Shown one piece after another: positions 11,551 to 31,900 of a stretch of 64,000 bases of DNA. Under the pieces are notes generated by a model, which was given only the letters and a program-made list of their open reading frames with translations, had not been told where the DNA came from and made no database searches. The DNA is from Strigamia acuminata (lineage: Eukaryota): positions 19,344,001 through 19,408,000 of the forward strand of contig OX442314.1 of assembly GCA_949358305.1 (NCBI GenBank), written 5' to 3'. How positions within the stretch are numbered: position 1 is the first letter of the stretch; the number at the start of each line of letters is the position of its first letter. A program made the position numbers and the translations under genes.

Positions 11551-12066
11551 AAGTCAAATAATTTTGGTTTGATGTTTTTCTATTTGAATATTTCATAATC
11601 ATTCTACTTTGTTGTGTACGCTGTGTAAATTACTAATGATATTTTATATAAAATATTTAGTACTGCCATTTGTGTTTGTGTTGATAAATTTTTTAGTTTT
11701 AGTACTTCTTACTTGTACAACGGAGGACTTGCTGGCTGAGAATATATCATTTACGTGTAAAATTGAAACCATTTTAGTGGCAGCAATTAAACGTCTCGCG
11801 TCTAATTGCAGCTATTTATCTATCTCGTCAATTTTTTAAAAACTATGACCCAGTCAACCAGCTCTGTGAGATAAACAAAAGACAAGAAGATGCTTTATAA
11901 ATTATTGACATTTGTTTTATCCATCTAACTAAAATTAATTGCTTTAATAGGCACGTTACATTACCCTCGCATCATACTGACTTTTTGTTTCCTCATTAAT
12001 TCGCCCTAAACTCACCGAATAGCTGAAACGTTCCGAAAAAAGAGCGATTTTAGTTTTTGTGCATTC

Positions 12067-12246
12067 TGATGGTGGATGAGTTAGATTTATGTAGATATAT
12101 ATATTTTAGGTCGCAGAGCAACTTGTGCTGCGACTAGCGTTTATTCTAGTAGGACAGGAAGTGAAGGGGTAAAGGGGGAAGGGAGTGACCAGTGGGTGGT
12201 CCAATACAAAACATCATGCCGAGATGACGTATAAAACATTCCAACA
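12067..12246 (-). repeat. 3' LTR of copia A
   Basis: Identical by eye to 23590-23769; preceded on the minus strand by PPT GAGAAGGAG. Confidence 0.96.
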
Positions 12247-12295
12247 CTCCTTCTCATCACAAATGATGTTGGTTACATAAAAAAAACAATAAAAA

Positions 12296-13900
12296 TTAAC
12301 TCAAAAATAAGTTTAACATTTTTAAACAATCTTCATGCTTCGGTCGGTAGAGTCCTTTGGTGAAGACATCTGCTGCCATTTGAGTGGTTGGCAGGTAGTG
12401 GAGACTCATTTTCTTATCTTCTACGACTTCTTTGGCGAAGTGAAAGTGCATATCGATGTGCTTGCTATCATGATAGCTCGAATGATCTTGTGAGAAGCAA
12501 ATGGCGGCCTGGTTGTCACAAAAGACGTCAGTTGCTTCCTGTTGCATTGTTTGGCAGCCCAACTCAATTAGAAGTCCTCTGAGGTGCAGGAGTTCCTTTG
12601 CTGCCTCCGATACCGCCATGTACTCAGCCTCCATGGTCGAAAGTGCAACGGTATGTTGCTTCTTGGATGCCCACGAGATTGGGCTTCCGGCCAAAATGAA
12701 CACATATCCTGTGGTCGATCTTCTGTCGTCGATGTCGCCACCCCAATCCGCGTCGGCGAATCCGTACAAATTTTCTTCAGTCTTCTCGTAGGTGATGCCT
12801 AATTTTCGCGTCCCTTTCAAGTATGAAAGTACCCTTTTCGCAGCTTTCCAGTGTGTTTCACCTGGATTTGCGCAGAAACGACTGAGGCTGCTCACTGCGA
12901 AGGCCAAATCTGGGCGAGTCGAATTCGACAGGTAAATCAATGCGCCAATTAACTCGCGATATGGCACGTTTTTCATTTTCTTCTTTTCTTCGTTTGTCTT
13001 GGGTGACATTTCTTTGGTTAGCTTCAGTGCAGGGTCAATTGGTGTGCTGACGGTGTTGCAGTTTGTCATGTTGAAGCGTTCCAAAATTTCATCGATGTAT
13101 TTGGTCTGAGTGATTTGCACAGTGTGTTCTTCCTCGTTTTGATTAATTTCAATCCCCAAGCAGTATTTCAGCGATCCGATGTCTTTCATCTTGAATTTAT
13201 CGCTTAAGTCGGACTTAATCTTGTTCATAGTTTCGGAGTTTTCAGCTATTATGATTAGGTCGTCTACGTAGACTGCAATTATGGTGGATTTTCCCTCTTC
13301 CAATCTGTAGAAGACACACGGATCTTTGTTGCTACGATTTAATTTCATCTTTTTGCGGAGGTGGCGACTTAGCTTCTTATGCCAATTCCTTCCGGCTTGC
13401 TTGAGTCCGTAGAGTGATTTCTTTAGCAAACAGACTTTATCTTCCTGTCCTTCTTCAACGAAGCCATCTGGTTGTCGCATAAATATTTCTTCATCGAGTT
13501 CGCCTTGAATATAGGCGGCGACAACATCCATTTGGTCGATTAGCCATCCCTTCTCAACTGCATACGCGATGAGAGTGCGGATAGAGTTGTAACGGACCAC
13601 AGGGGCGTAGGTTTCGTTGAAGTCAACTCCTTCTTTCTGCATAAAACCCTTGGCAACCAATCGTCCTTTGTAGCGGTCTATGTTGCCTTGCTTGTCCCGT
13701 TTGATGCGGAAAACCCAACATGAAAAAATCACTTTTTGATTTTTGGGTTTGTCGACAAGTATCCACGTTCCCATCTCCTTCAGCGCGTCGATTTCGTTTT
13801 GCATGGCTTCGCGCCATTCATTTCGATCGTCTCTGGACATCGCTTCTTCGACGGTGATGGGGTCTGATGGGAGTGAGCCGCAAACGAAATTTGCTGATCC
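12296..13900 (-). CDS. Copia A reverse transcriptase / RNase H
   Basis: DPITVEEAMSRDD...[44 protein letters not shown]. Out of frame with the upstream integrase ORF; the 5' limit is approximate. Confidence 0.93.
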   Translation of the reverse strand, partial: GSANFVCGSLPSDPITVEEAMSRDDRNEWREAMQNEIDALKEMGTWILVDKPKNQKVIFSCWVFRIKRDKQGNIDRYKGRLVAKGFMQKEGVDFNETYAPVVRYNSIRTLIAYAVEKGWLIDQMDVVAAYIQGELDEEIFMRQPDGFVEEGQEDKVCLLKKSLYGLKQAGRNWHKKLSRHLRKKMKLNRSNKDPCVFYRLEEGKSTIIAVYVDDLIIIAENSETMNKIKSDLSDKFKMKDIGSLKYCLGIEINQNEEEHTVQITQTKYIDEILERFNMTNCNTVSTPIDPALKLTKEMSPKTNEEKKKMKNVPYRELIGALIYLSNSTRPDLAFAVSSLSRFCANPGETHWKAAKRVLSYLKGTRKLGITYEKTEENLYGFADADWGGDIDDRRSTTGYVFILAGSPISWASKKQHTVALSTMEAEYMAVSEAAKELLHLRGLLIELGCQTMQQEATDVFCDNQAAICFSQDHSSYHDSKHIDMHFHFAKEVVEDKKMSLHYLPTTQMAADVFTKGLYRPKHEDCLKMLNLFLS

Positions 13901-15690
13901 TCGTTCGGGTCGAATGCGGTTTCTTGATTTTCGTTGGCGGGTTCAATGTCGTGTGTTCGGATTAAGTTGTATTGCTTCGACGGGCGCCCCGGTTTTCCGG
14001 TCCTTACGAGTTTTGGACGTCCCGGGCCTCGTTTGGTTTCAGCAGGTTGATTTTCAATCGGAATTTGCGCGTCGGCTTCATCGACATCGATTTCTCCTTC
14101 TGTTTCAACTTCGTTGTCATTGTTGCGCGCAGTAATGGCGTCAGGCGGCAGGCTTTCGGGTTCGTCAAAACTGGGAAAAATAAAAAATGGATCAGCAAAT
14201 GATTTTTCGCCATTATTTGAGATGGCATCGGTTGACTCGAAAATTTTGACGTGGCAGCTTTTCACGACTCTTTGTCGGGCAGCATCATAAAGTTTGTACG
14301 CTTTTGATTCAGCTGAATAGCCTATTAGTGTCAATTCATTTCCTTTTGCTTCAAATTTTCCTCTTCCCGGCCCCTGCTGCAACACGATGGCTTTGCTGCC
14401 CAGTCTTCTCAGGAAACCAATATATGGCTTTTTGCCGTGCCATACTTCAAATGGTGTTTGGTTCTGCAATGACTTGGTTGGGCAACGATTTCTGATGAAG
14501 ACAGCACTGTCTATAATTTCAGCCCAAAGGTGTCGTGGCAAATTCGATTCTATCATCATGCATCTTGCCATTTCACACAGCGTGCGGTTCATGCGCTCAG
14601 AAACGCCATTTTGTTTTGGTGTGTACTCGACCGAGAGTTGGCGACGAATCCCTTCGTCTTCTAAGAATTTGGTGAACGTGGCGCTGACGTATTCCTTGGC
14701 ATTGTCGCTGCGAATTTTCTTAATTTTTCGTCCGGTTTCGAGTTCGACTCTTCGCTTGAAGTTTTGAAATGCTCGGAAAATTTCGCCTCTTTCTTTCAAA
14801 ATTGCGACTTCGGTGTAGCGAGATTTGTCATCGATGAACGTGGCGAAATATTTGGCCCCTCCAAGCGAAGTGATTGGCATTGGTCCGCAAATGTCGGAAT
14901 GGATCAAATCGAGTACGTTTTCAGCGCGTGTTGACGACGGTGGGTGTGAGCTTCGGTGTATTTTCCCCTTTGCACAGGTCTCGCAGTCGAATGTTTCGCT
15001 TGTGGCGTCGAATTTTAGTCCATTTACCATTTCGTGTTTCTTTAGTTGCTGTAAAGCGGCCAAATTTAAATGTCCGAAACGATGGTGCCATATTTTCGAG
15101 TTTAAACTAATTTTCCCGGTGGCGACGTTTGCAATCTGCAGCGGTTTTGTTCGTATGATGAACATGTCGCCCCGTCGTTCAGCTTTCATGATCGTTTTTC
15201 CCTTCTTGCTGATTGTTGCGTTGTTTTCGGTGAAAATAACTTCAGCGCCCTGACTGGTAATGCGTGGTACTGACATCAAATTTCCGCTTAAGTCGGGTGC
15301 AAACATGACATTCTCCAAAACAATTGGTTTTTCGTAATCGTCCACGTCAAGGTGTATTTTTCCAAGTCCCTCGCTCTTCACGTACGTCTTGGAAGCGGTT
15401 CGAATTTGTCCCTTCATTGTTTCGTTTAGGCTGGAGAACATCTCACGATTTTTGCACATGTGGCGCGATGCGCCGCTGTCCAGGCACCATTCGACATTAT
15501 TCAGTGTGTGGTCGCTTTGGTAAGCGACGGCATAATTTGCTGATTCGGGCTGGTCATTTGCTGTTGCGATTTCTACATCACGTTCAGTCGGCGTCGCCTT
15601 TCCGTCAAGCTCAGTCGGTGTCATTTTTCCGTCTACGATTTGATACGTCGATACGACGGTCGCGGTAAGTGCTTCAGCGTCGACTGTCTT
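13890..15690 (-). CDS. Copia A protease / GAG-pre-integrase / integrase
   Basis: WCLDSGAS, WHHRFGHLN...CETC, HSDICGP, RSDNAKEY, QNGVSERMNRT. In frame with gag 22607-23364 once element B and one TSD copy are removed (NNNKT-VDAEALTA...GKMTPT). Confidence 0.93.
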
Positions 15691-16155
15691 TATTGGTTTG
15701 CGATGAATTATTTGCGATAATTATATTTGTTGTGCATTTCCGAATAGGCACAATAAGCGCGTTACTTCATATATTGTTACGAATGGTCAGCCAGTTGATT
15801 CTGCTTTTTAAACTACGCTTGTTTCGTACTCCAACTGGCTGTGTCTATGTGATAACGCGCGTCCCGTCGTCTGCTTGTTAAGCGACGATCGTTTAATTTG
15901 GTTTGGTATTGTTTATCGATTACTTTAGTCTTTACGTTGTATTATTGTAAAGAATAAATCTATTTGGTTATACTAATAGATTTGTTCTCGTTGTTACTCT
16001 GTAACCTGAGTTGAGATCAAATAGCCTCAACCCAGATCACTTGTTTTATGCTTTCATGGTGAATAAAGATGGCGGTCGCGTGTTGCGAACTAACCGCACT
16101 TTATAATCGGTTTGCAAGTTATTTCCGCATGCTCCAGGTCCAAATACGCTCTTCA
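15691..16155 (+). repeat. 5' LTR of copia B
   Basis: Identical by eye to 22142-22606; contains AATAAA signals; followed by AA and the PBS. Confidence 0.96.
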
Positions 16156-16157
16156 AA

Positions 16158-16171
16158 TGGTAGCAGAGGAT
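16158..16171 (+). promoter_or_regulatory. PBS of copia B, complementary to the 3' CCA end of tRNA-iMet
   Basis: TGGTAGCAGAGGAT, 2 nt after the LTR; it matches the complement of the animal initiator Met tRNA 3' end (...CAUCCUCUGCUACCA). Confidence 0.9.
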
Positions 16172-17279
16172 CGGCGACGACCAGCGCCGGCCAATTTTAG
16201 AAGAATTGAAGAGAAACGGACATTTTTCCGACTCCAAGAAGTCGCGAAGTGCGCGCCCGCCCAATTCGTCGTGAAAACGGATTTTCGGTGCGGCAAACGT
16301 CTGGATTACGTGTGCGGACCATTCTGCAAAGGAATAGGATTCCAACGGTGTAAGGAATATTTATTTCGAACGATTTAAACTGTATTTTTGCCGATATAAC
16401 CGGGCTTTCTCGGGCGGCGCCATTTTTGTTGAGCTTCGCTGCAGAATACGGCGAAGTTAGTGTGTCTACGCGTGTGTACGGACCGGCACACGCACGCCCA
16501 ACGATTCTACAACGGAATACGTCGACAGGACGGTATTTTGGAGCAAAGAAGCGTCCCAAAACCGTCAATTTTTTCGAGAAATCACCGTGAATCGACGATT
16601 TTGTTACGGTGGCCATTTTTCGTCAAAAATAGACGGAAAAACGACGATTTGATTCACCGAGAAGTCCTGCACACGATAAGCGTGTGTGTGGGCAATTGTT
16701 TCCGTACCTCGCACCAGGAAAGCGAGTACGAAGGCGCAGACGGGCGCTACGACGATTTTCTCCGCGCTTACACGGATGTGTGTACGCGGATTGCACGTCG
16801 GCCCCAGTTCCGTGCGAAGACAACGTGAAGCCGACGTTTAATTCAACGTGGGAACCAGTTACGACGCGTGAAACCCGTAACTGGCCAACTTCACATCGGA
16901 AACTGTATTTTTCGAATTTTTCTCGTGAAACTCTGTTATTTCTTAAGGTTTTTGTGTTGGGTCACTTAGAATATTCTGTACCCTTCGGGCAGTCGCCCCA
17001 GTACAGTCTCATTCCAGTCTGGGCTTGTCCGTGGCCAACTAGTCGTCCCGCGTCCCCCAGGTGGGCCGGTCGGAAGCTAGTAGGGCGACCAGATTTGGGT
17101 TTTTCATCTCACTTATTGAGGTGCCCCTTGGGAAGTGTAAAATTATTTCGCCTTCAATTTTTGGGGGCAAATTGCTTCTCCGTGCGACATATTCACGTGT
17201 ATTGTGAATATTTGTGTTTTTCTTCGGAAATTTTGTGATTTAGCGATTTGTGCGTCGTTTTTCGTCGAATTTTCTCAAC

Positions 17280-20200
17280 ATGGCAAGTTGGGATCGCCGG
17301 GACGACTATAAGGACGTGGAAAAATTGAATGGAACGAACTATTCGACGTGGAGTGTTCAAATCCAACTCCTTTTGCAATCATATGGAGTTTGGGGCCACG
17401 TGACTGGCAAGGAGAAGCCCTTGCCAGCCACGGCTTCTGCAAAAGAAGTTAGGGAGTTTGACAAGCGCGAGGAGAAAGCGCGCTCCACCATTTGTCTGGC
17501 TTGTGGAAAAGCCCAACAGGTAGTGGCTGTGGCACACGAAGGGGCCAAAGAGGTTTGGGAAGCGCTCAAAGCTGCTTACCAGCCCACTACCAGGGCACGC
17601 AAAGCCCGACTTCGTCGCGAATTTCTCATGTTGAAACTCCATGAGCAAGAGGAAATGATGGTTTTCCTAGCCAGAGTCGACAGGAAGGCGCTGGAACTGA
17701 AAGACGTCAAAATAGACATTTCCGACGAATTCCTGGCCTTCCAGTACCTGGATCTGCTGCCACATCAATACGAAACGGTCAAGCAGACGGTCTACCACTG
17801 GGGAGACCCGGAATTCACCTCGAAGGCCGTCAAAGAACGTTTATTAGGCGAATATAATCGCCTCTACGAGCAAACGGATGAATTTGGTGTTTCATTGGGC
17901 ACAATTGAGAATACGGGTGCCTATTTCACCAAAGGCAGATGGCAACGTGGCCGGGGGGGAAATGCCCCCAGTTCTCCACGCGTCTGTTACAACTGTGGCG
18001 GAACAAATCACTTCGCCCGGGAATGCTCGTCCCCACCAAAACAGCAACAAGGTGCTACGAGAGGAAACCCGACAGGACAGTTCAGCAGGGGCAGTCAACG
18101 AGGGAAGAGTCGTGGGAAGAGCCAGCAGACGGCCAACGTCACGCAAATGGACATTTTTAGCAATTCCCCGGTGTCTTATTTCTCCGCAGCGATTTGCCAA
18201 GAACAACCCCCTGTTGTAGTGTCTTTATTGTCGCATGCGAACTACGATTCGCAATGGTACGTCGACACAGGTGCGACGGACCACTTTTCGTTCAACAAAA
18301 CCTGGTTTTCGGACTTTAAACCATTGACTGGTTATTCTGTTCAACAAGGAGACGGAAAGTCGAAAATCGAGGGCATTGGAAATGTGACTTTAGTTTCGAT
18401 TAATGGACGACAAACACGTGAACTAACGTTGAAAAACGTTTATTACGCACCCAACTTCAAAAAGAATTTGATTTCTTTAGGTCGTACGGATGAAGCTGGG
18501 GCGACGACCATTGTGAAAAATGGAAAAATGTTTATTTATGATGTGACAATTGATGACCCTTCTATCACTGCGATACGTACGAGTGATAGGATGTACAAAG
18601 TCAATTGTCGCATTAATGCAAAGAATTCTGTAAACACAGTTGCACTGTCTGCGCAACAGAGTGCAACAGTGGCACCGACTCCACCTTTAGCGGGTGAAGA
18701 AATTGTGAAATCTTTACTAACACACGTTGATTTTAGAACCGCATTAACCCAAAATTTGAGTAAATCAGGGAAACCTGTACCTGCGAATGAGGGGCAAGCG
18801 AAAACTGCGAATAATGCGCCAGCGATCGTTGCAAACAATGCGAGTATGGAAATTTCGAATCAACAATCGAGTGTTTTGACCGACACACAGTCTAGCTTAG
18901 TGGCCAGCAAGGGCAATAAGCCCAAGGATGCGAAAATTTTGAAAACAATTGTGCAAAACAATTTAACAAATGGAAATGGGGTTGTAAATGGAAAGAATGC
19001 TTCCATTAAACCAGATAAACCCCAAACGATGGACATCTGGCACTCTCGTATGGGACACCTTAATGCAAAGGGAATTGCATTGTTAAACAAATCTACTGAA
19101 GTGTTTGGTTTGAAGTTGTCCAACACGGAATTGTCGAGTTGTGATGCTTGTTCGAGGGCGAAAAGCACACGTGCCAGTTTTCCCCCCATTGCGACCATTT
19201 CGACCAAAGGGATTTTAGAAATTGTCCATTTAGACGTGTGGGGCCCTTCACCAGTTAAGAGCATAGGTGGGGCGTACTACTATTTGGTCATGGTCGATGA
19301 CTTCTCACGATTGATGTGGATCGTGATTATGAAGAAAAAGAGCGAAGTTTTGGGCCATTTTAAGAAGTGGTTAACCGAAATTGAAAGAACGACTTCTAGG
19401 AAAGTCAAGTCGATCAAAACTGACAATGGAGGGGAATTCGTATCCAAACAATGGGATGAATATGCCGGTAGCATTGGGCTGAAGTGTATGCGGACGAACG
19501 CATACAGCCCTGAGATGAACTCCATCGCTGAAAGAACGAACCGTACCATTCTTGGTGGAATTAGAGCTTTAATGATTGAAAATAGTCTTCCTCCATCCCT
19601 GTGGGCAGAACTCGCAGTTTCTGTCGTTTATTTAAAGAACCGGTTTCCGCATGCGGGATTGGGTGGGAGGACACCTTATAATGTGTTTTTCAATAAGAAA
19701 TTATCCCTACGACATGTCAAGTGCATTGGAGCTTTAACTTATGTACATGTCCCTTCGCAGACAAGGGCTGGGAAGTTACAAGAGAGAGCATGGGCGGGGG
19801 CCTTAGTTGGATATGCCTCTTCCACCCGTGGTTATCGGATTTGGGATCCGAACAAAAACCAAGTTTTTCTCTCAAAACACGTTAAAATTTTGGAACAGAA
19901 TTTCTGGTACGAGAATGTAAAGAATCCCCCATCTGGCCCATCACCTGCTACTGACGATTCAGATTTATCAGGTGAAGAGTCTTGTAATGACTCTGACACG
20001 GACAGTGTTCACAGCGAACCTATCCCTGAAGAAGAGGTCAAAGTGGTTGAAAAACTCGTGGAGAGACCCATTCAGGCCAGACCACCTGGGGGACCCGACT
20101 ATGTAGATGCCATGCAATACATCATTGGAGATATACATGGCCTAAATTTTGATGAAATCGGTGGGGCGAAGGGGGATGATAGGGATTTCTTCAATATTTA

Positions 20201-22124
20201 TCCCGACGACGATGAAGGAGAAGTTGAAGAGGAAGTTGAGGACCCAGATGCAAGTGCTCAATTGTCGCCCCAATTGTCACCCACACCCCCTCGTCGGAAC
20301 CCGCCTAGAAAAGGGAAAGACATTGGCGAACGCACAGCTTCAACGAGTGACTTGTTGCCTCTAGATATGACTTTGTGGCAAAGACGGCAGACTGTACGTC
20401 AAAGCGGGGCAACAGCTGGGAAAGTTGATGTTTGGTACATCACACCAAAGCACGAGAAGCTCCGCAGCCGTGTTGAGGTTGTCCGTTGGTGCAAAGCCGA
20501 GGGATATGAATATAAATCGGAATTGTTTAACTTCAAAGATGTGACTATCGGTTTTGCTGGTTGCTGCTCTGTCGAGCCGGACACGTACGAAGAAGCGGTC
20601 AAAGGCGCCAGCAAACCTGATTGGGAAAACGCGATGGAAGACGAAATAAATATCTTCAAAGAGCGTGAGGTTTATGTCGAAGTCGACAAAGACCAAGTTA
20701 AAGACAAAACCTTATTGGGATCAAAATGGATATACAAGTTAAAAAGGGATCACACGGGTACGATTAGAAGATATCGTGCTCGTCTCGTTGCACAAGGCTT
20801 CAAGCAGAAGCCAGGCATTGACTTTACTGAGGTATTTTCCCCAGTAGTCAATTTTGTGTTAGTCATGATGTTCTTCTGTGTCTTAGTGGTACTGAGGGGC
20901 TGGCGTGACGTACACCTTGACATTAAGGCCGCATACCTATATGGGGACCTCGACGAAGTGCAATATATCCACATCCCAAAAGGATATCGAACGACTGAAA
21001 ACCAACACAAATGTTGGGAATTGAGAAAGTCTCTTTACGGGCTCCATCAGTCTGGTCGTATGTGGTACCAGCGACTCCACGACCAGCTGATTGAAATTGG
21101 ATTTGAACCGGTCTTGGGTCTCAATTGCGTGTATAGCTTGGGCACTGACGCTATACTTATTTTCTATGTCGATGACATAGTATTGTTTTCAAAAGACAAC
21201 ATAGCAGAGGAGTGCGTTTTGGATTGGATTCAACAATCATTTGAGATTGTCAATTTGGGCCCCGTCACCCTTTTGTTAGGGATAGAGTTTTGTAGGGACG
21301 GGGAGAATATCTTTATTCATCAACGCGCTTATATTGCAAAGTTGTGTAAGCAATATGGGATTGACTCTTGTCATCGAGTTAGAGTGCCTGGCACTCCGGG
21401 CACCATGATCCAAAAGGTTCAGACGGGGGAACGTGTCAATTCGAGTTTTCCGTATCGGTCTCTTGTCGGCAGTTTGCTCTTCATTGCTAGTCGCACAAGA
21501 CCCGATATTTTGTTTTCGGTGATAGTGTTGTCTCAATACAACGAGACTCACTCGACTCGACACGTGAACATGCTGCTCCAAATCTTGCGGTACTTGGGGA
21601 ACACGCCAAATTTCTCTATCAACTTGGGAAACTGCCAAAGCGAAAATTTGACCGTTTATACGGATGCGTCCTTCGCATTAGACCAGGACAAACGTCGGAG
21701 CTTTGGTGGGCACATCATCTACCTGGGAGGTGTCCCAATCTCATGGAACTGCCATAAGCAGACCATTACACCACTTTCCATTATGGAAAGCGAATTTTTG
21801 GCGGTGGTCGATGGTGTAAAGGAGATAATTTGGTTGGAGCGCATATTTGGTGCGGATGTAATGATGGAGGGGCTCAACCGGGAAATACCATGTGTTTACG
21901 CTGATTCAATGCCAGCGATCCAATATGCGAAGAATCGCATAGAAAATCGCGCAAACAAACACATTGATGTTAAACTGCATTTCGTGCGCGACTGGTTTGA
22001 AAAAGGTGTTTTTCGAATCAGACATATCCCGGGAACCCTTAACGTAGCCGACCTTATGACCAAGTGGCTATCTCGCGCAAAACTAGATGCATTGTGCGAG
22101 CATATTTTTGTAACGGCAAAGTAG
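17280..22124 (+). CDS. Copia B gag-pol polyprotein: Gag, CCHC knuckle, PR, IN, MBD, RT, RNase H
   Basis: First ATG at 17280; EKLNGTNY, CYNCGGTNHFAREC, WYVDTGAT, WHSRMGH, HLDVWGP, KTDNGGEF, MBD at about 20358-20537, YVDDI, YTDASF, KHIDVK. Confidence 0.96.
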   Translation: MASWDRRDDYKDVEKLNGTNYSTWSVQIQLLLQSYGVWGHVTGKEKPLPATASAKEVREFDKREEKARSTICLACGKAQQVVAVAHEGAKEVWEALKAAYQPTTRARKARLRREFLMLKLHEQEEMMVFLARVDRKALELKDVKIDISDEFLAFQYLDLLPHQYETVKQTVYHWGDPEFTSKAVKERLLGEYNRLYEQTDEFGVSLGTIENTGAYFTKGRWQRGRGGNAPSSPRVCYNCGGTNHFARECSSPPKQQQGATRGNPTGQFSRGSQRGKSRGKSQQTANVTQMDIFSNSPVSYFSAAICQEQPPVVVSLLSHANYDSQWYVDTGATDHFSFNKTWFSDFKPLTGYSVQQGDGKSKIEGIGNVTLVSINGRQTRELTLKNVYYAPNFKKNLISLGRTDEAGATTIVKNGKMFIYDVTIDDPSITAIRTSDRMYKVNCRINAKNSVNTVALSAQQSATVAPTPPLAGEEIVKSLLTHVDFRTALTQNLSKSGKPVPANEGQAKTANNAPAIVANNASMEISNQQSSVLTDTQSSLVASKGNKPKDAKILKTIVQNNLTNGNGVVNGKNASIKPDKPQTMDIWHSRMGHLNAKGIALLNKSTEVFGLKLSNTELSSCDACSRAKSTRASFPPIATISTKGILEIVHLDVWGPSPVKSIGGAYYYLVMVDDFSRLMWIVIMKKKSEVLGHFKKWLTEIERTTSRKVKSIKTDNGGEFVSKQWDEYAGSIGLKCMRTNAYSPEMNSIAERTNRTILGGIRALMIENSLPPSLWAELAVSVVYLKNRFPHAGLGGRTPYNVFFNKKLSLRHVKCIGALTYVHVPSQTRAGKLQERAWAGALVGYASSTRGYRIWDPNKNQVFLSKHVKILEQNFWYENVKNPPSGPSPATDDSDLSGEESCNDSDTDSVHSEPIPEEEVKVVEKLVERPIQARPPGGPDYVDAMQYIIGDIHGLNFDEIGGAKGDDRDFFNIYPDDDEGEVEEEVEDPDASAQLSPQLSPTPPRRNPPRKGKDIGERTASTSDLLPLDMTLWQRRQTVRQSGATAGKVDVWYITPKHEKLRSRVEVVRWCKAEGYEYKSELFNFKDVTIGFAGCCSVEPDTYEEAVKGASKPDWENAMEDEINIFKEREVYVEVDKDQVKDKTLLGSKWIYKLKRDHTGTIRRYRARLVAQGFKQKPGIDFTEVFSPVVNFVLVMMFFCVLVVLRGWRDVHLDIKAAYLYGDLDEVQYIHIPKGYRTTENQHKCWELRKSLYGLHQSGRMWYQRLHDQLIEIGFEPVLGLNCVYSLGTDAILIFYVDDIVLFSKDNIAEECVLDWIQQSFEIVNLGPVTLLLGIEFCRDGENIFIHQRAYIAKLCKQYGIDSCHRVRVPGTPGTMIQKVQTGERVNSSFPYRSLVGSLLFIASRTRPDILFSVIVLSQYNETHSTRHVNMLLQILRYLGNTPNFSINLGNCQSENLTVYTDASFALDQDKRRSFGGHIIYLGGVPISWNCHKQTITPLSIMESEFLAVVDGVKEIIWLERIFGADVMMEGLNREIPCVYADSMPAIQYAKNRIENRANKHIDVKLHFVRDWFEKGVFRIRHIPGTLNVADLMTKWLSRAKLDALCEHIFVTAK
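20358..20537 (+). other. Methyl-CpG-binding domain (MBD) within the copia B polyprotein
   Basis: PLDMTLWQRRQTVRQSGATAGKVDVWYITPKHEKLRSRVEVVRWC...ELFNFK aligns by eye to the MBD2/MeCP2 pattern W-x7-R-x-SG-x2-AGK-x-DV-Y/x-Y-x2-P-x4-(F/L)RS...F-D/N-F. Confidence 0.92.
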
Positions 22125-22141
22125 TTCATCGAAGGGGGATT

Positions 22142-22606
22142 TATTGGTTTGCGATGAATTATTTGCGATAATTATATTTGTTGTGCATTTCCGAATAGGC
22201 ACAATAAGCGCGTTACTTCATATATTGTTACGAATGGTCAGCCAGTTGATTCTGCTTTTTAAACTACGCTTGTTTCGTACTCCAACTGGCTGTGTCTATG
22301 TGATAACGCGCGTCCCGTCGTCTGCTTGTTAAGCGACGATCGTTTAATTTGGTTTGGTATTGTTTATCGATTACTTTAGTCTTTACGTTGTATTATTGTA
22401 AAGAATAAATCTATTTGGTTATACTAATAGATTTGTTCTCGTTGTTACTCTGTAACCTGAGTTGAGATCAAATAGCCTCAACCCAGATCACTTGTTTTAT
22501 GCTTTCATGGTGAATAAAGATGGCGGTCGCGTGTTGCGAACTAACCGCACTTTATAATCGGTTTGCAAGTTATTTCCGCATGCTCCAGGTCCAAATACGC
22601 TCTTCA
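22142..22606 (+). repeat. 3' LTR of copia B
   Basis: Follows PPT GAAGGGGGA plus TT; followed by TSD GTCTT. Confidence 0.96.
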
Positions 22607-23364
22607 GTCTTGTTGTTGTTCGATTTTCCCGCGTGGCCTGGCTTCCTTTTACGGCAGTCTTTTGCCAAATGTCCCACCAATCCGCATTTGTTACATTTTC
22701 CTTTAAATTTAAAAGAAGTGTTATTAGTTTTGATAAAATTGTTTTTGGCGGTTAAAGCGTTTTGAGGCGCTTTTTCGTTTTTGCGTAAGTCCTCGTCCTC
22801 CTGCAGCAATTTAATTTTCACTGCGGCGAGGTCGGGTAGCGTTTCCCTCATTTTTATCGATGAGCGGAACAATGCGAATGTGTCGGGAAGCGTGTCCATC
22901 AGTAATATCACTAACAGGTCGTCGTCGAGCGAGCTACCGGTCTGTTTTAAGTTCTGCGCCGTTTCATCAAAGTTGTTCAAATGCGTGTTCATCGTCTCGT
23001 CGTCAGATTTGCGCATATTGATTAGTTTTTTGAATAAAAACATTTTTCGGTGCGGGCCCTTCGGTTGAAAGAATGCTTCCAACTTGTCCCACGCCTCGGC
23101 GGACGTTGTGGCTGTACTAATGGCGCCTTGGTGCGTGCGATTTATGCCCAATCCGATGGTTGCGAGGGCGATTTCGTCCTTCTCTAGCCATTCGTTCACT
23201 GCAGTTGTGTTTGGAACATCTTCCGTGGCTTCCGGTTTGACTGTTCGTTTACACACGTACGCCCAAAGTTTGTTGCAAATTAACACGTTTTTCATCTCAG
23301 TTTTCCAAGATTCATAATTGTCCTCACCGAGTTTTTCTACCTTAAATCCTCGAACTGATTCCAT
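22607..23364 (-). CDS. Copia A gag (N-terminal part, cut by insertion of B)
   Basis: MESVRGFKVEKLGEDNYESW, gag helices, knuckle CNKCGLVGHLAKDC. Confidence 0.92.
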
Positions 23365-23577
23365 TTTTCGTTTTCAAAAGTTCAAAAATATTTGCCTGGC
23401 ACTGTTTGAATTGCGTTTGGTGGTTACACGGCTTGATGTGGCTTGATGCACGTCTCTCAGCTCGGGTGTACACGTGGTCGCTCGTTCACGGCTTGACTTT
23501 TCGATTTTTTGATGTATTTTTGCGATTTTTCGGGAAAAATGTTCGTAACTCACTGTTGCGTAGTGTATGCAGGTGTT

Positions 23578-23589
23578 GGACCCATAACC
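23578..23589 (-). promoter_or_regulatory. PBS of copia A, internal (half-molecule) tRNA-iMet type
   Basis: GGTTATGGGTCC immediately after the LTR's terminal CA; resembles the Drosophila copia PBS GGTTATGGGCCCAG. Confidence 0.82.
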
Positions 23590-23769
23590 TGATGGTGGAT
23601 GAGTTAGATTTATGTAGATATATATATTTTAGGTCGCAGAGCAACTTGTGCTGCGACTAGCGTTTATTCTAGTAGGACAGGAAGTGAAGGGGTAAAGGGG
23701 GAAGGGAGTGACCAGTGGGTGGTCCAATACAAAACATCATGCCGAGATGACGTATAAAACATTCCAACA
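23590..23769 (-). repeat. 5' LTR of copia A
   Basis: Identical by eye to 12067-12246. Confidence 0.96.
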
Positions 23770-23885: not shown

Positions 23886-26800
23886 TGTAGTTTTTGTTCT
23901 AATATGTTGGAGGCATAAAAATGGAGACGTGTGGTTGTTAGGTGAAAATATTAACAGTGATGGTTTTAATCTTAAACAGATGTTAAAAAGTGCGTGGAGC
24001 ACCAAATACAATTCGGGTCACTGATTGGTCAGTGTCAGTGACAGGTGCACAGGTGACAAAGACACCTGGCGGACAGGAATACAACATTCAATAAACAACA
24101 CTTCCCCTGAATGGCAATATTCCTACATTTTAAAATTCAAAACATTTTTCTTAAACAATTCAGACATTTAAAAAATTAAAGTATTCATTCACAAACAATT
24201 CAAATATTAAAAACAATATTTCTTAAACAATTTCCTTCAATCCAAATTGGGCGATCAATTCTTCGTGTTTTGGCTTAAAAAGCCCCTTGGTCAACACATC
24301 GGCGACCATCTTCTCACTCTCCAGGAATTCTATGTCGATATCTCCCCGCTCACATGTTTCTCGAACGAAATGGTGGCGAATGTCGATGTGCTTGGTCCTG
24401 GAATGAAAAATTGGGTTTCGCACCAATTTGTGTGCCCCCTGATTATCGCTATAAATGAGGGTCGTTTCTTTCTTCTTGTTGATGTATTTAATTTCGTCTA
24501 GGAAGTTTCGCAAGTAGATTGCTTCTTTTGACGCTTCGGCCAACGCCATATATTCTGCTTCGGTCGACGAGGTTGCGACGGTCTTCTGCTTTCTTGCTTC
24601 CCAGCATATTGTCGCGTTCGCGAGTTTAAAGCAGTAGCCGGTGTACGAGCGACGGTCGTCCAAGTTTGCTCCCCAATCTGCATCCGTGTAGCCGACTAAG
24701 TCTTTTCCGGTCTTTTCGAATTTTAGCCCGAGATTCGATGAGTGCTTCAAATATCTTAGGACGCGTTTTGCTGCTGTCCAATGAGTTCCGGTGAAACACG
24801 TATTATATTGACTTAATGCGCTGACGGTGTAGGAAATATCGGGTCGAGTGCAAACGGCGAGGTACATGAGTGATCCGATTAAACTTTGGTACGGGAAATT
24901 CTCTGGATCCAGTAGCTCTTCGTCGGTCCCATCCTCCTTTTTCTTGTTTTTCTGCAATTTCTGATTTGCGTCGAGTGGAGTTGTGTTTTTCGAGCAGTCT
25001 TGCATTCCGAAACGATTCAGTATGTCCTTAACGTATTTTTTCTGCGCCATCGTGATTGATTTCGTCTTTTCGTCCTGTTTAAACTCGATTCCCAAGCAGT
25101 AGTGAATTTGTCCTAAATCCTTCATTTTGAACTCGCTCTTCAGGTTCGATTTTAATTTCTCCAAGTTTCTTTTGCAGTTCGTTGCGATGATAAAATCATC
25201 CACGTAGATTGCGACGAGCGTGATGACTTCTCCATTCGTTTGGTAATACACGCATGGGTCTGCGTTTGTTGGCTTCAGTCCGTGCTTTTGCAACTTCTCG
25301 TCCAGTTTTTTGTACCACTGGCGACCCGACTGCTTCAATCCGTATAATGCCTTTCTCATCCGGCAGACTTTTCCTTTCTTGATTTTTATTCCAGCGATAA
25401 ATTCCAAATATTCGGGGAATTCCATAAAAATTTCCTCTTCGATTTCGCCGTTCAAATATGCCGTTATCGCGTCCATTTGGTGTACGGTCAATCCCAACTC
25501 GGCTGCGATTGCCATCATCATTCGAATTGATCCCGGTCGTGCGACGGGCGCGTAGGTTTCAAAGTAGTCGATGCCTGGCTGCTGTGCATATCCTTTGGCG
25601 ACCAGTCGGGCCTTTCTGCGTTCGATTGACCCGTCTGCTTCAAATTTTGTGCGGAGGACCCATCTACATCCGATTACGTTTCTATTTTTCGGTCGGTCGC
25701 ACTCCTCCCACGTTTCGTTTTCAATTAAAGCGTCGTATTCGTCCTTCATCGCTTTCATCCATTCTTGTGGGTCGTTTCCATTCAAAGCTTCGGCCGCTGT
25801 CGTTGGATCGTCGAGAATTGCTATCTGTGCAATTTCGTCCAAAACTTCATTAGTTGTTGTCGGATTCTTTCTGGTGTATTTCTTTCTGGGTGGGTCCCCA
25901 TTTCGATTTGGGTAAGGTTTTGGCGTTCTCGAGGATCGTCGTGGAATTATTTGCGCGTTTTCATTCTGACGAGGTTCGGCTTCTTCGTGTTGCGTCTCTC
26001 TCTCGTCCTCATTGTCGGGCTCGTTCTCGCCTGCGCTCTCGACTTCGTCCTCGGAAATTTCGGTTCCATTCTCGATTTGATCTGTTCTGCAATCGGTGAG
26101 AATGTCATTAAAATTATTGTTATTATCGTTTTCTTCACATTCTTCATTCGTTTCATTTTCCGATTTTTCGACAAATTTCACGTCTCGACTTTTTATAATC
26201 TTATTTTCGCTTTTCGACCATAAACGATACGCCTTCGATCCGTCCCAATATCCGATGAGAATACATTCTTTTGACTTCGGTTCGAACTTCCCCTTGTTTG
26301 GTTTCTTGTCCAACGCAAAAACTCTGCTCCCGAAAACTCGAAAATAGTCAACATTTGGTTTTCTTCCGGTCCAGACTTGATGCGGTATTTCATTTTCCAA
26401 ACTTCTAGTCGGGCATTTATTTCGGATGTGGCACGCAGTGTTGATTGCTTCCGCCCAGTATGTGTTGGGCAATTTTGCTTGCAGTAACATGCATCGTGCC
26501 ATCTCGATTAAAGTTCTGTTCATTCTTTCAGATACGCCATTTTGTTCCGGTGTGTGGGCGACGCTGGTTTGACGTTTTATGCCGTTTTCTCGCAGATAGT
26601 TGTCAAAGTTCTTGTTTACGTATTCCTTCCCGTTGTCCGATCGTAAAACTTTGAGTGCGCAACCAGTTTCCCTCTCGCAAAACGTTTTAAATGACTTGAA
26701 TGCCTCGAAAACTTCGCTTTTGTGCTTCAGAAAATACACTTTGCACCACCTCGATTTGTCGTCGGTGAAGGTCACGAAGTATCTTGATCCGTTCATGGAC

Positions 26801-28659
26801 TTTGTTGGCATTGGTCCGCAAACGTCCGAGTGTACAAGTTCCAGCAGTTTTTCGCTTTTTGACGTGGAGTCAGGAAATTTCGTACTTGCGTGCTTCCCCT
26901 CGATGCAAGTTTCACAAGTTGGCAGCTTGGCGTCCTTTTCCAAGTTCATTCCGTCCGCCTTTTCGTTTAGTATTTTCAGACTTGACTCGTTCAGGTGCCC
27001 AAGTCTTTTGTGCCATTCTTGTATTTTCGTACTTGCGGGTTTTGCAGGTTTTGATCCGGTTCCGACTTCGATTTCCGCTGCAGTCGCAGCATCCTCGGTC
27101 TCGTCGACGATGTAATACAATCCGTTCCTTTTTTCGGCGGTGAATATGATTTCTCCCTTCGGATTTATCACTTCTGCTGATTTATCATCGAAAATCACCT
27201 TGTGTCCCCGTTCTGTGATCTTCCCGACTGACATCAAATTCGTTCGCAAATCTCGTACCAAAAGAGTTTCCGCCAAATCCAGTTTCATATTTCCGTTCCC
27301 GGTGTTGACGACAATTTTCGCGGTTCCTTTTCCGTCGATTTTTGTACTCGCTTTGCTGGCCAAATTCAGTTTTTGGTTTTTCAGGAATTCGATCGTCGAA
27401 AATGTTGAATCGTTCGAGCACATGTGGGAGCTGGCGCCGCTGTCCAAACACCAATTCTTTGGTCGTGACTTCTCGCTTATCAGGGCTGTCTCGATTTGCT
27501 CGCAAAAAAATAATTCGTACTTGGATTTCTCGGCTCTTGATGCGCTTTCCTTCTTGCTTTTACTTCGGCAATCGGCGATTTTGTGGCCAATTTTTCCGCA
27601 ACCGTGACACTTGTATTTAAAAGCTGGCTTCTCGGTCGAATTCGAATTTTCGTCGCCGTATTTCTTTGGTTGCTTACGTTTTTGGAACGTTTTTCTGGCC
27701 ATCATGGCGTCCGATACGTCTTCTTTCCCTTTTCCGCGGGCGATTGACTCGTCTTTGATCTTTCCCTCCAAAACTTCCAGCGAGGGCAATTTATCTTGCG
27801 ATTCTATTGCGCATCTGAAGTTGTCGTAAGAGTTCGGCAGGCTTAGTAGCAGTAAGATCGTTGTGAAGTCTTCGGGCATCTTGAAATCCATGTCTAGTAG
27901 CTTATCCACCAGCTCGAAGAATTCTTTTAAGTGGTTCTCCACGTTTTCTCCGTCCGCCATCTTGTGTGTTGCGAGTCGTTTTAACAACGTGATTTTTCTT
28001 GCCGGTCCTTTCGATTGGTACACACTATGCAGCTTCCTCCACAATTCGTTCGCGGTGTTGCAATTTTTAGCCATTCGAAGTTCCGATTGTTTTATATTTA
28101 GCAAAATGTCATTTTTGGCTGTTCGATCACTTTTCTCCCACGTTTCGATCTCCTTCATACGTTTCGCGTTTCCTTCAATGGTTTCTGGTCGTTTCGACGT
28201 ACCTTCCGCGTGCACGAGTAGGTCCCGTTGATCCAAAATTGCTTCCATCTGGATCTTCCATGTGTCGAAGTTTTCCTTTCCCAACGCCTCAATTCGAGCT
28301 GAATTTCCGCCGCCGTTCGCCATCGTTTCTTAGTTCTGTTTCTTGTGGAATGTTCGTGTTAAATTCGTTTTTAACTTCCTCGAATGTTCCGGTACAAAAC
28401 TTGATGATTTTTAAGCGCAGTGGAAGCGTGCTGGGCCCATAACCTGTAGTTTTTGTTCTAATATGTTGGAGGCATAAAAATGGAGACGTGTGGTTGTTAG
28501 GTGAAAATATTAACAGTGATGGTTTTAATCTTAAACAGATGTTAAAAAGTGCGTGGAGCACCAAATACAATTCGGGTCACTGATTGGTCAGTGTCAGTGA
28601 CAGGTGCACAGGTGACAAAGACACCTGGCGGACAGGAATACAACATTCAATAAACAACA
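23886..28659 (-). mobile_element. Ty1/copia LTR retrotransposon C (intact)
   Basis: 215-bp LTRs at 23886-24100 and 28445-28659; TSD ATTAT at 23881-23885 and 28660-28664; PBS GGTTATGGGCCCAG at 28431-28444; PPT AGGGGAAG at 24101-24108. Confidence 0.97.
24223..28323 (-). CDS. Copia C gag-pol polyprotein (1366 aa, uninterrupted)
   Basis: CHGCGKIGHKIADC, WCLDSGAS, WHKRLGHLN, HSDVCGP, RSDNGKEY, YVDDF, GYTDADWG, RTKHIDIRHHF. Confidence 0.96.
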   Translation of the reverse strand: MANGGGNSARIEALGKENFDTWKIQMEAILDQRDLLVHAEGTSKRPETIEGNAKRMKEIETWEKSDRTAKNDILLNIKQSELRMAKNCNTANELWRKLHSVYQSKGPARKITLLKRLATHKMADGENVENHLKEFFELVDKLLDMDFKMPEDFTTILLLLSLPNSYDNFRCAIESQDKLPSLEVLEGKIKDESIARGKGKEDVSDAMMARKTFQKRKQPKKYGDENSNSTEKPAFKYKCHGCGKIGHKIADCRSKSKKESASRAEKSKYELFFCEQIETALISEKSRPKNWCLDSGASSHMCSNDSTFSTIEFLKNQKLNLASKASTKIDGKGTAKIVVNTGNGNMKLDLAETLLVRDLRTNLMSVGKITERGHKVIFDDKSAEVINPKGEIIFTAEKRNGLYYIVDETEDAATAAEIEVGTGSKPAKPASTKIQEWHKRLGHLNESSLKILNEKADGMNLEKDAKLPTCETCIEGKHASTKFPDSTSKSEKLLELVHSDVCGPMPTKSMNGSRYFVTFTDDKSRWCKVYFLKHKSEVFEAFKSFKTFCERETGCALKVLRSDNGKEYVNKNFDNYLRENGIKRQTSVAHTPEQNGVSERMNRTLIEMARCMLLQAKLPNTYWAEAINTACHIRNKCPTRSLENEIPHQVWTGRKPNVDYFRVFGSRVFALDKKPNKGKFEPKSKECILIGYWDGSKAYRLWSKSENKIIKSRDVKFVEKSENETNEECEENDNNNNFNDILTDCRTDQIENGTEISEDEVESAGENEPDNEDERETQHEEAEPRQNENAQIIPRRSSRTPKPYPNRNGDPPRKKYTRKNPTTTNEVLDEIAQIAILDDPTTAAEALNGNDPQEWMKAMKDEYDALIENETWEECDRPKNRNVIGCRWVLRTKFEADGSIERRKARLVAKGYAQQPGIDYFETYAPVARPGSIRMMMAIAAELGLTVHQMDAITAYLNGEIEEEIFMEFPEYLEFIAGIKIKKGKVCRMRKALYGLKQSGRQWYKKLDEKLQKHGLKPTNADPCVYYQTNGEVITLVAIYVDDFIIATNCKRNLEKLKSNLKSEFKMKDLGQIHYCLGIEFKQDEKTKSITMAQKKYVKDILNRFGMQDCSKNTTPLDANQKLQKNKKKEDGTDEELLDPENFPYQSLIGSLMYLAVCTRPDISYTVSALSQYNTCFTGTHWTAAKRVLRYLKHSSNLGLKFEKTGKDLVGYTDADWGANLDDRRSYTGYCFKLANATICWEARKQKTVATSSTEAEYMALAEASKEAIYLRNFLDEIKYINKKKETTLIYSDNQGAHKLVRNPIFHSRTKHIDIRHHFVRETCERGDIDIEFLESEKMVADVLTKGLFKPKHEELIAQFGLKEIV

Positions 28660-28950
28660 ATTATGTTGGAATTAGAAATAAGACCTTCGCCTATTTTTCT
28701 TCTTTAATATACGGCAACATTTGTCATACTCAACAAATGTTTGGCCTATTAAATGAAATAATGATGTAATTACATCTTCGTACATAATCGTTAAAGTTTC
28801 AACTTATCACTTGGCAAACTCGTGTAGGAGTTGGATTAGACGGGTCAGTCTGTTCTCTTGGATCGATTTGTTTGTTTTCTAATTTTGCTGTTGTAGGTAG
28901 TATCTACATCATTTACAGGGTACTCGAAAATTTTAACATCCCGTGTAGAT

Positions 28951-31900
28951 ATGGAAAACAAAAAAAGAAGCAGTTGGAAACCGATTTCTAAATATGAAAA
29001 AATTTTATTTGCAATTGCAGTTATTTTCATTCTGTTATCAATTTTTCTTGTAATTGGATTAATCGTCAAGTCCAAATCAGGTAAGGATGACAATTATGAT
29101 ATTATACAGTAATTAGCTGAAAAAAAGTTAATTTTTAGGGAAAAATATTTGCAATTCGAAAGCGTGCGTCGAAGCGGGTACAGTACGAAAAATACTCAAA
29201 TGTGGGAAATATGGGTCACGATTTTCTTTTAGCGTATGAAATCATCACAAATATGGATCCGAATACAGAGCCATGTACCGATTTTTATCAGTATGGTTGT
29301 GGAGGTTTTGCAAATAAAACAAGCATTCTAGGTTTAGAAGCTTTTTCTGAAATGTCACATGATGTGAGTAGGATGGAAAGCTTGGAAGAATTCCGAAGTA
29401 AACCAAATTTCCCTCTTCCTCTATATCTCCATAAAGTATTAATCATGTATAATTATTTGCTCCAGAAATTGTTAATCAACCTTTGGAGGAAAGAGAAAAT
29501 AGATATTCTAAGCAAGTTAAAGATTTATATTCTTCGTGTATGAATGAAAGTACGTAATTCTACCATTTTACTAGTACGGTATGCATTTTAAAATCACTTT
29601 TTTTAAACATAAAACAGCAATACTCGAGGAATTAGGCGCGTCCCCATTAATTGAATCATTAAATGAAGTTGGAGGATGGCCAGTTCTTGTGGGATCCGAT
29701 TGGAAAGAAAATGAATTTGATTGGAAGCAAGCTCTTGTTCAGTTTCGAAGTATGGGAATTCCAATTTACTATTTTTTCGATATACATGTGAGAGTTAGTT
29801 ACGCTAATCATCAATCCGCAATAAATACCATGCAGGTAAATAAATCTACGTTTTATTTTAATCTGGAATACCATTCATTTAATCAAATTTTAGATAGAGC
29901 CGCCGTGGTCAACACATGTGCCATCAGAAGCTGATGATCGCAAAGCTTATCTTGATTACATGATTGATTTAGCTGTGCTCTTCGGAGCAGAGAGAGCGAG
30001 AGCTGAACGTGAAATGAAAGTAGTGCTTGATTTTGTAACTAATCTTAACGACATTTTGGTAAGTAAATGAATAAAAATTGTCAATATTAGTTACACTGCT
30101 TTGCTTTTTGTACTTTTAAATAGTCATCATCAGGAAGCAATTATTCTGAGGCAATTACAGTACGAGTGCACGAATTGGAGAACTACATGCCCCAAATTTC
30201 CTGGTATGACTTCCTGAACAACTTAAACTTTTCAACACCAATAACTCATTATAACGAAGTAGAAGTCCTTAATCCAGACCATTTAAAACAACTTTCTACT
30301 TTAGTTTCATCAACCAATAAGAGGTGAGCTATTCAATTTTCATTTATTTGGGTTTTGGAATCAATTAAATAGCTGTTTATAGGATTATTGCTAATTATAT
30401 CATGTGGAAAGTGGTCGAGGATCATTGTAAATATCTAAATAAGAAGTTTCGAAATTTCTGTGCGGAATATCACAAGGACTTTCGAGGATTTCCTAGTTTT
30501 CCATCTAGACAATTCTTTTGCTATACCGAATTGCGTGACGTCATGACCGTGGCAACTGGTGCCATGTATGTTAAAAATGTACCGGATCCACAATCTAAAC
30601 CTATGGTAAGAATTATAATTTTACTAAAAAATAATAAAAAATACGAGTAATAATTTATGGAAAATTTAGGCGACTGACATAGCGAATAGCATCCGAGATG
30701 TTCTAACTCGAAGTATTCAGAAAGCTAAATGGATGGATTCATCAACATTGACATCAGCTATGGGAAAAGTAATAGTTTAACATTACGCCATATAAATTTA
30801 AAAAAAAAAATTTAAAAAGTGATATAATTTCAGCTTAAAACATTGAATTTGTTAATTGGTTATTTGGATGAACATATTAATGACACTATCATAAATGATT
30901 TCTATGCTCCCGTAAGTGAAGTCAGAGATCTTTTTCTCTGGTAGCGATTTATTTTATATGCGAATTTAGATTATACGGCAAGGAAAACTCTTTGCCTATA
31001 TGTACTCAGTATTCGTTTTATCAAACGAGAAAGAGATTGAGAGGCATTTGTAATGACGCTATTACAAATGCGTCTCCTTCGCTCGTCATTAGAGCATAAA
31101 GACTGGTCACTTGCAGAGGAACCAAAAATTGTTTTTGCCTGTTCCGTAGTGATAAGAATGACCCGGTGGTTATGCTCAAAAAGATAATCAACACTTATTA
31201 ATATAAAGATTGTGTTCATTCAGCTCGTCATTTCAAAGAATACATTTTTTAAAAATGTGCTGCACTCGAACAAATTTGAAGTTGACCGGCAATTTTCCAA
31301 AATAACAAAGAAAACGGCTGATGACTTAGCGTAAGTGGTCACGGTTTTTACAGTATACGGTAGGTCAACTTCGTACGGAACTACAAATTTAATTCGTTCC
31401 TCTGTAGACCGTACAATCGTAGTTTTGGTCAAGAGGCAGTGGCTAATGGAGTTTGAAGGAAAAATAACTCAAATTCCACATACCGGTAGGTTACATTGAC
31501 ACTTTGGGCTGGCAATTTGAGTTGCAATTCTTCCCTCAATCTTCCATCGGCCAATATTACAAAATAAATTTTAAATTTACAATATATTTCAGAATTTTTA
31601 ACTTGGGCTTTTATGATATCTGGTCATTTAGAACGTATTATTGGCAATCATTAAATCGTTTAGGTAATTTATTAAACATGCTTTAAAATATAAAACTGAA
31701 AACCGAAAGTAATTCCGGTATTTATTTTAGATATGTACGCCGGCTTATTGAGACCTCCGTTATTTAATGTCGAATGGCCAAACTATTTAAACTATGGTGG
31801 CTTCGGCTCTTTATTTGGATTTGAGATTCTTGAAGGATTTGGTTATCATGGTAATTTTTTTTACAATTTTTAAATCAAGAAAAGAAAAATCTCAAAACGA

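Follow-up and report, generated by a model that had tools for sequence, protein, structure and literature searches.

The window, a 64,000-nucleotide stretch of DNA, carries at 15691–22606 an intact, 6.9-kb copia LTR retrotransposon, element B, in which integrase (IN) precedes reverse transcriptase (RT, RVT_2) between LTRs. Four further copias (A, C, D and E) were found in the window; they have identical LTR pairs and target duplications (TSDs), and none encodes a methyl-CpG-binding domain (MBD). Element B sits in opposite orientation inside element A, directly after the Gag zinc knuckle of element A. Elements A and C, both without an MBD, lie 115 bp apart. The features of element B are compiled in Table 1. 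Its primer-binding site is one that we take to match the initiator tRNA-Met. A sequence-only reading of this DNA had placed the open reading frame at 17250 to 22124. The stop is the same, and 17250 is an in-frame GTG ten codons upstream of the ATG at 17280; residue numbers in this analysis are lower by 10 than in that reading.

Table 1. Features of element B and of the element in which it is inserted (positions refer to the window).
Feature	Position	Strand	Remarks
Element A, MBD-less copia hosting element B	12067–23769	−	Identical LTRs of ~180 bp, 5-bp TSD; pol part also split over two frames
TSD of element B, 5 bp, GTCTT	15686–15690 (left copy), 22607–22611 (right copy)	+	Contigs skip 15686–22606; 5 letters fit both sides
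5′ LTR, 465 bp, termini TA...CA (not TG...CA)	15691–16155	+	3′ LTR identical
Primer-binding site, same type as that of element E	16158–16171	+	
5′ leader, 1.1 kb, CpG-rich	16172–17279	+	9.25 CpG per 100 bp over 16156–17279
Gag-PR-IN-MBD-RT-RNase H ORF, single, 1614 aa	17280–22124	+	No stop or frameshift; carries PR, IN (HHCC, DDE) and RT motifs
Copia Gag (PF14223) and zinc knuckle	17364–18029	+	Pfam
Protease (PF22936)	18255–18500	+	Pfam
Integrase: HHCC region, rve core, SH3-like domain (aa 804–877)	19014–19910	+	Pfam
Acidic linker, then basic Pro/Arg/Lys stretch	19911–20354	+	Net charge −27 over aa 878–990
Methyl-CpG-binding domain, aa 1026–1087	20355–20540	+	Pfam, PDB sequence match, AlphaFold model, Foldseek
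Short spacer with putative IN/RT protease site	20541–20573	+	
Reverse transcriptase (RVT_2 aa 1139–1370, YVDD at aa 1296) and RNase H	20574–22121	+	
Polypurine tract	22131–22139	+	
3′ LTR	22142–22606	+	

The element had been described as very young and intact, and the uninterrupted ORF, the TSD and the identical LTRs bear this out. No difference was found over the 465 bp of the LTRs. By the rule of three, they have diverged by at most about 0.65% (95%), and the insertion of element B is therefore very recent. In three of four runs, contigs without element B join the two halves of element A through a 5-letter overlap, and the junctions of the insertion are thereby confirmed; one of the contig runs, X6, covers 7 of 30 bins. 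No RNA data set containing the element was listed, which has no bearing on its expression. These contigs probably come from other copies of element A. A chimera produced by an assembly error is unlikely, given the single ORF, the identical LTRs, the TSD and the empty site in three runs, and one contig from a diverged subfamily spans 20340–20570 in two runs. A joint that skips 20215–20714 in one run was considered as a possible MBD-less copy and rejected; its short side comprises 23 letters, with unknown letters in between.

The region 20358–20537 had been read as an MBD lying in frame in an intact ORF. It does translate without a stop, into the peptide reported as the domain (20376–20537) preceded by six upstream residues. 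A Pfam scan of the element B ORF matched PF01429 at aa 1033–1087 with 40.1 bits (cut-off 21; E 2.7e-10), in the same ORF and between the SH3-like domain of integrase and RVT_2. None of the nine other window proteins scanned with Pfam contains an MBD, and a six-frame scan with a CopiaMBD profile gave no second site in the whole window. The best PDB sequence matches of the domain were MBD1 (E 6.7e-8) and MBD2; matches to the Ika8/Ika4 beta-propeller and to tankyrase contained no significant stretch and were attributed to chance. An AlphaFold model of the domain, built on a 25-row alignment, reached a mean pLDDT of 91.3, and its top Foldseek matches were MBD4, MeCP2, MBD2 and MBD1. When superposed on the DNA complexes of MBD4, MeCP2 and MBD2, the model fits over about 55 columns with an rmsd of 1.2–1.6 Å in the best rows. 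The sequence-only reading had proposed both the PF01429 scan and a superposition on MeCP2/MBD2 as checks, and both came out in its favour. It is confirmed that element B encodes an MBD fold between integrase and RT, far beyond chance.

Within this fold, R1040 (20397), D1050 (20427) and R1062 (20463) align with the Arg, Asp and Arg of MBD1, and they are presumably equivalent to R111, D121 and R133 of MeCP2. The residue after Asp-Val is W1052 (codon 20433–20435), where MBD1, MBD2 and MeCP2 have Tyr. According to the alignment, its position is that of MBD1 Y34 and MBD2 Y178, and we assume it to be that of MeCP2 Y123. The MBD2/MeCP2 signature ascribed to the domain is hence present as far as the two Arg and the Asp are concerned, but it is not complete. 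In table S3 of the supplement of PMC6673714, compared by eye, all 22 published CopiaMBD rows have Tyr at this position and none has Trp. Among the 38 MBD-bearing relatives collected here, the residue is Tyr in 34, Phe in two (one Argiope cluster), His in one and missing in one, and it is Trp in none. Trp does occur in one of the 51 host-protein rows of the published alignment, namely in human BAZ2A.

This Tyr is singled out for methylcytosine recognition in PMC6673714, which describes it as conserved in most CopiaMBD copies. It is reported to make a water-mediated contact to methylcytosine, and methyl selectivity has been tied to its hydroxyl group (PMC5240623). For MBD3, loss of the hydroxyl is stated to cost about tenfold, and mCG binding “does not strictly require” the Tyr (bioRxiv 10.1101/338061). 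The Arg fingers, on the other hand, are described as essential and as making cation-pi contacts to methylcytosine (PMC8600091). Because of W1052, we do not class the MBD of element B as a canonical methyl-selective reader. The earlier statement that it reads host DNA methylation was overstated, since in the absence of the Tyr this property is not transferable from the Strigamia domains that have been tested. A literature search for “tyrosine to tryptophan” together with MBD, with subscription journals mostly outside its scope, found no description of a Trp variant. Judged by its residues, the folded domain likely binds CpG and probably discriminates less sharply for the methyl group than the Strigamia domains do. 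For Trp, this weakening is carried over from what is seen with Phe, and the indole NH might stand in for the hydroxyl. An MBD with Trp and intact Arg fingers is a useful probe of the discrimination between mCpG and CpG.

Compared with named host proteins, the domain shares the fold, the two Arg fingers and the Asp with the vertebrate proteins MBD1, MBD2, MeCP2 and MBD4. It differs from them in lacking the Tyr hydroxyl and the repressor or glycosylase partner domains and in being encoded by a mobile element. Arg fingers combined with an aromatic residue other than Tyr at the selectivity position are also found in mammalian MBD3 and arthropod MBD2/3; in the published rows, the MBD2/3 of Strigamia, Stegodyphus, Daphnia and Drosophila have Phe there. 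Binding of mCG by MBD3 is described as weaker in bioRxiv 10.1101/338061. Unlike MBD3 and MBD2/3, element B has Trp instead of Phe and no NuRD coiled coil.

We assessed whether the Trp is maintained. A subfamily about 80% identical to element B keeps the Trp codon. Its contig covers the whole MBD in two of three runs and has 46 differences in 231 bases, and none of the 35 that are listed falls in the Trp codon. Over codons 1031–1087 (57 codons), 19.7 synonymous and 15.3 non-synonymous differences separate the subfamily from element B, corresponding to a dS of 1.0, a dN of 0.12 and a dN/dS of 0.12 (Fisher p 8e-8). Among nearer variants, taken together from short contigs, eight synonymous changes stood against one replacement (dN/dS 0.03). 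R1040, D1050, W1052 and R1062 are unchanged in all contigs compared; C1071 is likewise unchanged. More distant contigs matching only 20411–20447 have no listed change in the Trp codon either, which carries little weight as they were chosen by matching there. Purifying selection acts on the MBD among subfamilies in this host, and the Trp is a selected change, not an accident of one copy. Neutral decay of the domain is excluded by the dN/dS of 0.12.

These data bear on the reading that the MBD serves something other than CpG binding (protein or RNA contact, or structure), its Trp being buried in the core like that of the TAM domain of BAZ2A/TIP5, or that it is a decaying relic. TAM resembles element B in having Trp at the selectivity position, and W551/Y552 of BAZ2A, the equivalent pair, contribute to the hydrophobic core (PMC4446428); degenerate MBDs do occur in the clade of element B (P0100). 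However, a subfamily whose dS is near 1 retains both Arg fingers and the Asp without change, and a relic in decay is incompatible with the dN/dS found. Furthermore, TAM is described as carrying Lys where the two Arg fingers would stand, together with an additional alpha/beta extension, and as binding the DNA backbone and RNA (PMC8600091 and PMC4446428). Both hallmarks, the Lys and the extension, are absent from the MBD of element B, and the RNA surface of BAZ2A uses R545 and W546 besides the extension (PMC4446428). We therefore regard a role apart from CpG, or none, as very improbable. The idea that the Trp itself marks an RNA binder like TIP5 was downgraded for the reason that W551 is a core residue and other residues contact RNA.

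The descent of element B was examined using its relatives. A HMMER search of representative proteins, with the MBD and the start of RT as query, returned 150 proteins. Of 158 proteins collected, 38 contain an MBD at an i-E below 1e-4, 24 of these 38 having also helped to build the profile; with these relatives, the CopiaMBD class is wider than first reported. A word-index search with polyprotein region 1015–1110 found none among 33 candidates, which reflects the sensitivity limit of that search, as HMMER did find relatives. Among 30 matches whose names were looked up, the species given are spiders of the genera Araneus, Argiope and Trichonephila. A tree calculated from 77 RT rows unites every one of the 20 MBD-positive rows in a group of 23 (SH-aLRT 98). 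The other three rows of the group begin no earlier than where the MBD position ends and were assigned to it once the first tree had been seen. With 29 redundant or long-branch outgroup rows removed, the resulting tree of 48 rows supports the same group, including element B, at 99/97. The RT phylogeny, which had also been suggested as a check, thus places element B with other MBD-carrying copias, 19 in number, one of them an Araneus element (P0056). The nearest rows are about 51% identical in RT, and forcing the RT of element B together with the other copias of the window was rejected (p-AU 0.0005).

A second trait supports this grouping. The Cys in the helix of the MBD, C1071 in element B (20490), was found by eye in 19 of 22 CopiaMBD rows and in 0 of 51 host rows (3 lack the stretch); the comparison with the published Strigamia and Stegodyphus sequences covers MBD rows (PMC6673714, table S3). 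Because of the RT clade and the helix Cys signature, element B is, on sequence grounds, a CopiaMBD by descent, with an MBD capture that is old and shared with spider elements. A recent independent capture was rejected on the same two grounds and because the GC3 of the MBD (0.48) is like that of IN (0.47) and RT (0.50). The term “captured” used earlier for the domain is consequently right as to the capture, but not as an event of element B itself. The remark that the class is not new also holds: the position of the domain, the RT clade and the MBD features published for CopiaMBD (PMC6673714) agree. Thus, the class is already published, and element B adds the Trp at the methyl-selectivity position. 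In the literature searched, the name CopiaMBD turned up in a single paper, and no follow-up was found among the matches listed.

Element B and the CopiaMBD elements of Strigamia maritima and Stegodyphus have in common the copia order with RVT_2, the LTRs, PF01429 beside the integrase in one ORF and purifying selection on the MBD. The motif RQSGATAG is common to element B and a Strigamia clade D row. Element B is unlike them in its Trp for Tyr, in LTRs that start with TA and in the spacing of MBD and RT, which at 14 aa is the shortest of 29 proteins measured (median 31).

As to the function of the domain, PMC6673714 reports DAP-seq binding of three CopiaMBD domains from Strigamia to methylated, CpG-dense DNA. 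According to the same paper, young CopiaMBD copies lie in CpG-denser flanks, and in two species the bias of insertion changes along with the methylome of the host. Integration targeting is an inference there too; the paper notes that IN and MBD could be cleaved apart, and it argues that carrying an MBD should be unstable once host methylation patterns change. For element B, the reading we prefer, giving it an even chance, is that the MBD likely remains attached to the integrase C-terminus, from where it likely directs integration to CpG-dense DNA, the Trp being predicted to weaken the preference for mCpG. A protease would cut in the 11-residue stretch that separates the MBD from the beginning of RT. 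We place this IN/RT site after the MBD because relatives show a similar hydrophobic/Cys stretch just before the RT start motif. The MBD would then remain joined to the integrase through an acidic tether about 150 aa long, and its Arg fingers would bind DNA and hold the integration complex on CpG-dense DNA, here that of other retrotransposons. The exchange of Tyr for Trp would make the domain less selective for methylated CpG.

Chromoviruses, too, are described as bearing a chromatin reader at the end of their integrase, in the form of a chromodomain, though these elements are Gypsy instead of Copia and read histone marks. In Ty5, a Sir4-targeting motif at the integrase C-terminus reads a protein.

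The insertion site was compared with those of the other copias. The 300-bp flanks of element B contain 24 CpG, compared to 7, 10, 15 and 16 for the four MBD-less copias, this being one insertion. None of 748 overlapping host windows reaches 24 CpG, whereas 31% of the 85 windows taken within element A match this density. The other retrotransposons have 5.0–6.8 CpG per 100 bp versus 2.5 in host DNA; outside the elements, the GC content is 33%, and the host CpG o/e is 0.94. The flank evidence amounts to one event, and LTR elements that have no MBD commonly nest as well. A family that looks active and whose selectivity residue carries a selected substitution provides a natural test of CopiaMBD target choice, for which the four equally young MBD-less copias beside element B can serve as controls.

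If the Trp were simply tolerated, the MBD could still be a fully methyl-selective reader, as the sequence-only reading had proposed, and direct the integrase to transposons or gene bodies that carry methylation, just as its counterparts do in Strigamia and Stegodyphus. The retained Arg fingers with their cation-pi contacts, the Asp, the residual binding of mCG by MBD3 with its Phe (bioRxiv 10.1101/338061) and the landing of element B in a CpG-rich retrotransposon would all agree with this. We consider it unlikely in view of the Tyr found in all published CopiaMBD rows and in most relatives, and of BAZ2A, the host row with Trp, which is reported to bind DNA regardless of methylation, though it lacks the Arg fingers as well. 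The lack of a CpG decay signal also argues against it: in five overlapping alignments of tandem host duplicates, CpG changed at 76 of 364 sites (20.9%) and GpC at 86 of 403 (21.3%; p 0.93), showing no CpG hypermutability, and among the transitions listed in the elements, CpG enrichment was not clear (11 of 30 versus 26% expected, p 0.13). Germline methylation has therefore left no local sign. Even where an arthropod does methylate its DNA, lineage-specific genes like the duplicates of the window may lack methylation. For transposons, methylation is reported to have been gained and lost across arthropods (PMC7343188). A retuned reader, which would read CpG-rich DNA regardless of methylation or prefer unmethylated CpG and nest in a host that does not methylate transposons, is conceivable but rather unlikely. 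If true, it would represent a retrotransposon that tracks the loss of a host epigenetic mark.

Alternatively, the MBD might bind DNA outside of target choice, acting on the CpG-rich LTR and leader of element B (o/e 1.59 and 1.57) or on its cDNA, or competing with silencing by host MBD/NuRD. Roles outside integration are among those that PMC6673714 could not reject, and purifying selection is silent on which step is served. Moreover, some relatives, namely P0100 with its degenerate MBD and P0003, have lost DNA-contact residues and kept the fold, which fits a second role for the domain. We assign this explanation a minor share of the probability. It is at odds with the site at which the MBD is fused, where in other elements chromodomains direct integration, and with the insertion bias that follows the host methylome in two species (PMC6673714); in addition, no repressor-recruiting part was seen in element B, and the protease site likely follows the MBD instead of preceding it. 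Tethering to CpG-dense DNA with a weakened methyl preference remains our preferred reading.

Apart from the retrotransposons, the window contains tandem neprilysin-like units, a name taken from reading ORF fragments, and intronless serine-hydrolase-like genes, the latter with 32–40% identity at best among the matches listed. A tree of the serine-hydrolase-like genes suggests as host an arthropod that is neither a spider nor a hexapod, either a myriapod, with a centipede being compatible, or another chelicerate. A different host had been considered possible for element B, and one other than the spiders of the tree is probable. The tree comprises 79 rows, from 76 of at least 120 matches and three window copies, and it represents one fast gene with a long branch and a midpoint root. 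In it, the window copies cluster with rows from millipedes, scorpions and spiders (SH-aLRT 98) without entering the spider group, and they are separate from crustaceans and insects.

Together with element B, the intact young CopiaMBD retrotransposon, the other four copias of the window (A, C, D and E, which do not carry the MBD and all belong to different families) bring the number of very recent copia insertions within 64 kb to five, and this number suggests a burst or a hotspot as their source. Copias A and C are separated by 115 bp and both are sited between tandem gene units; D and E lie between tandem serine-hydrolase-like genes. The tandem 4.6-kb units are 89–94% identical to one another; their coding fragments are putatively neprilysin-like, a name taken from reading ORF fragments and not from a database match.

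Features of the window accompanying element B
Feature	Window position	Strand	Remark
Copia A	12067-23769		identical LTR pair, 5-bp TSD
Copia C	23886-28659		identical LTR pair, 5-bp TSD
Copia D	44709-49578		identical LTR pair, 5-bp TSD
Copia E	52963-57936		identical LTR pair, 5-bp TSD
Tandem 4.6-kb units	about 2400-12000		neprilysin-like coding fragments
Tandem 4.6-kb units	about 28660-38350		neprilysin-like coding fragments
Serine-hydrolase-like gene	43410-44240	minus	intronless, tandem
Serine-hydrolase-like gene	49634-50476	minus	intronless, tandem
Serine-hydrolase-like gene	50891-51736	minus	intronless, tandem
Serine-hydrolase-like gene	59000-59674	minus	intronless, tandem, broken
Short inverted-repeat pair	52458-52628
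Short inverted-repeat pair	63594-63888

The database protein P0100 belongs to a copia related to B (49% identity across the RT start). It retains a weak MBD-like stretch at residues 440-498, in the same position as in B, from which the Asp, the Tyr and the second Arg have been lost. At the selectivity position (Trp, W1052, in B), most CopiaMBDs carry Tyr, whereas Phe is found in the MBD2/3 rows that supplement table S3 of PMC6673714 gives for the host proteins of Strigamia, Stegodyphus, Daphnia and Drosophila.

Between its protease and the integrase HHCC region, element B contains a low-complexity insert of ~135 aa (aa 445-580, window about 18612-19019), for which a Pfam scan returned no match. 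Its LTR starts with TA (window 15691-15692) and those of the other four elements with TG. The two inverted-repeat pairs are possibly old MITEs.
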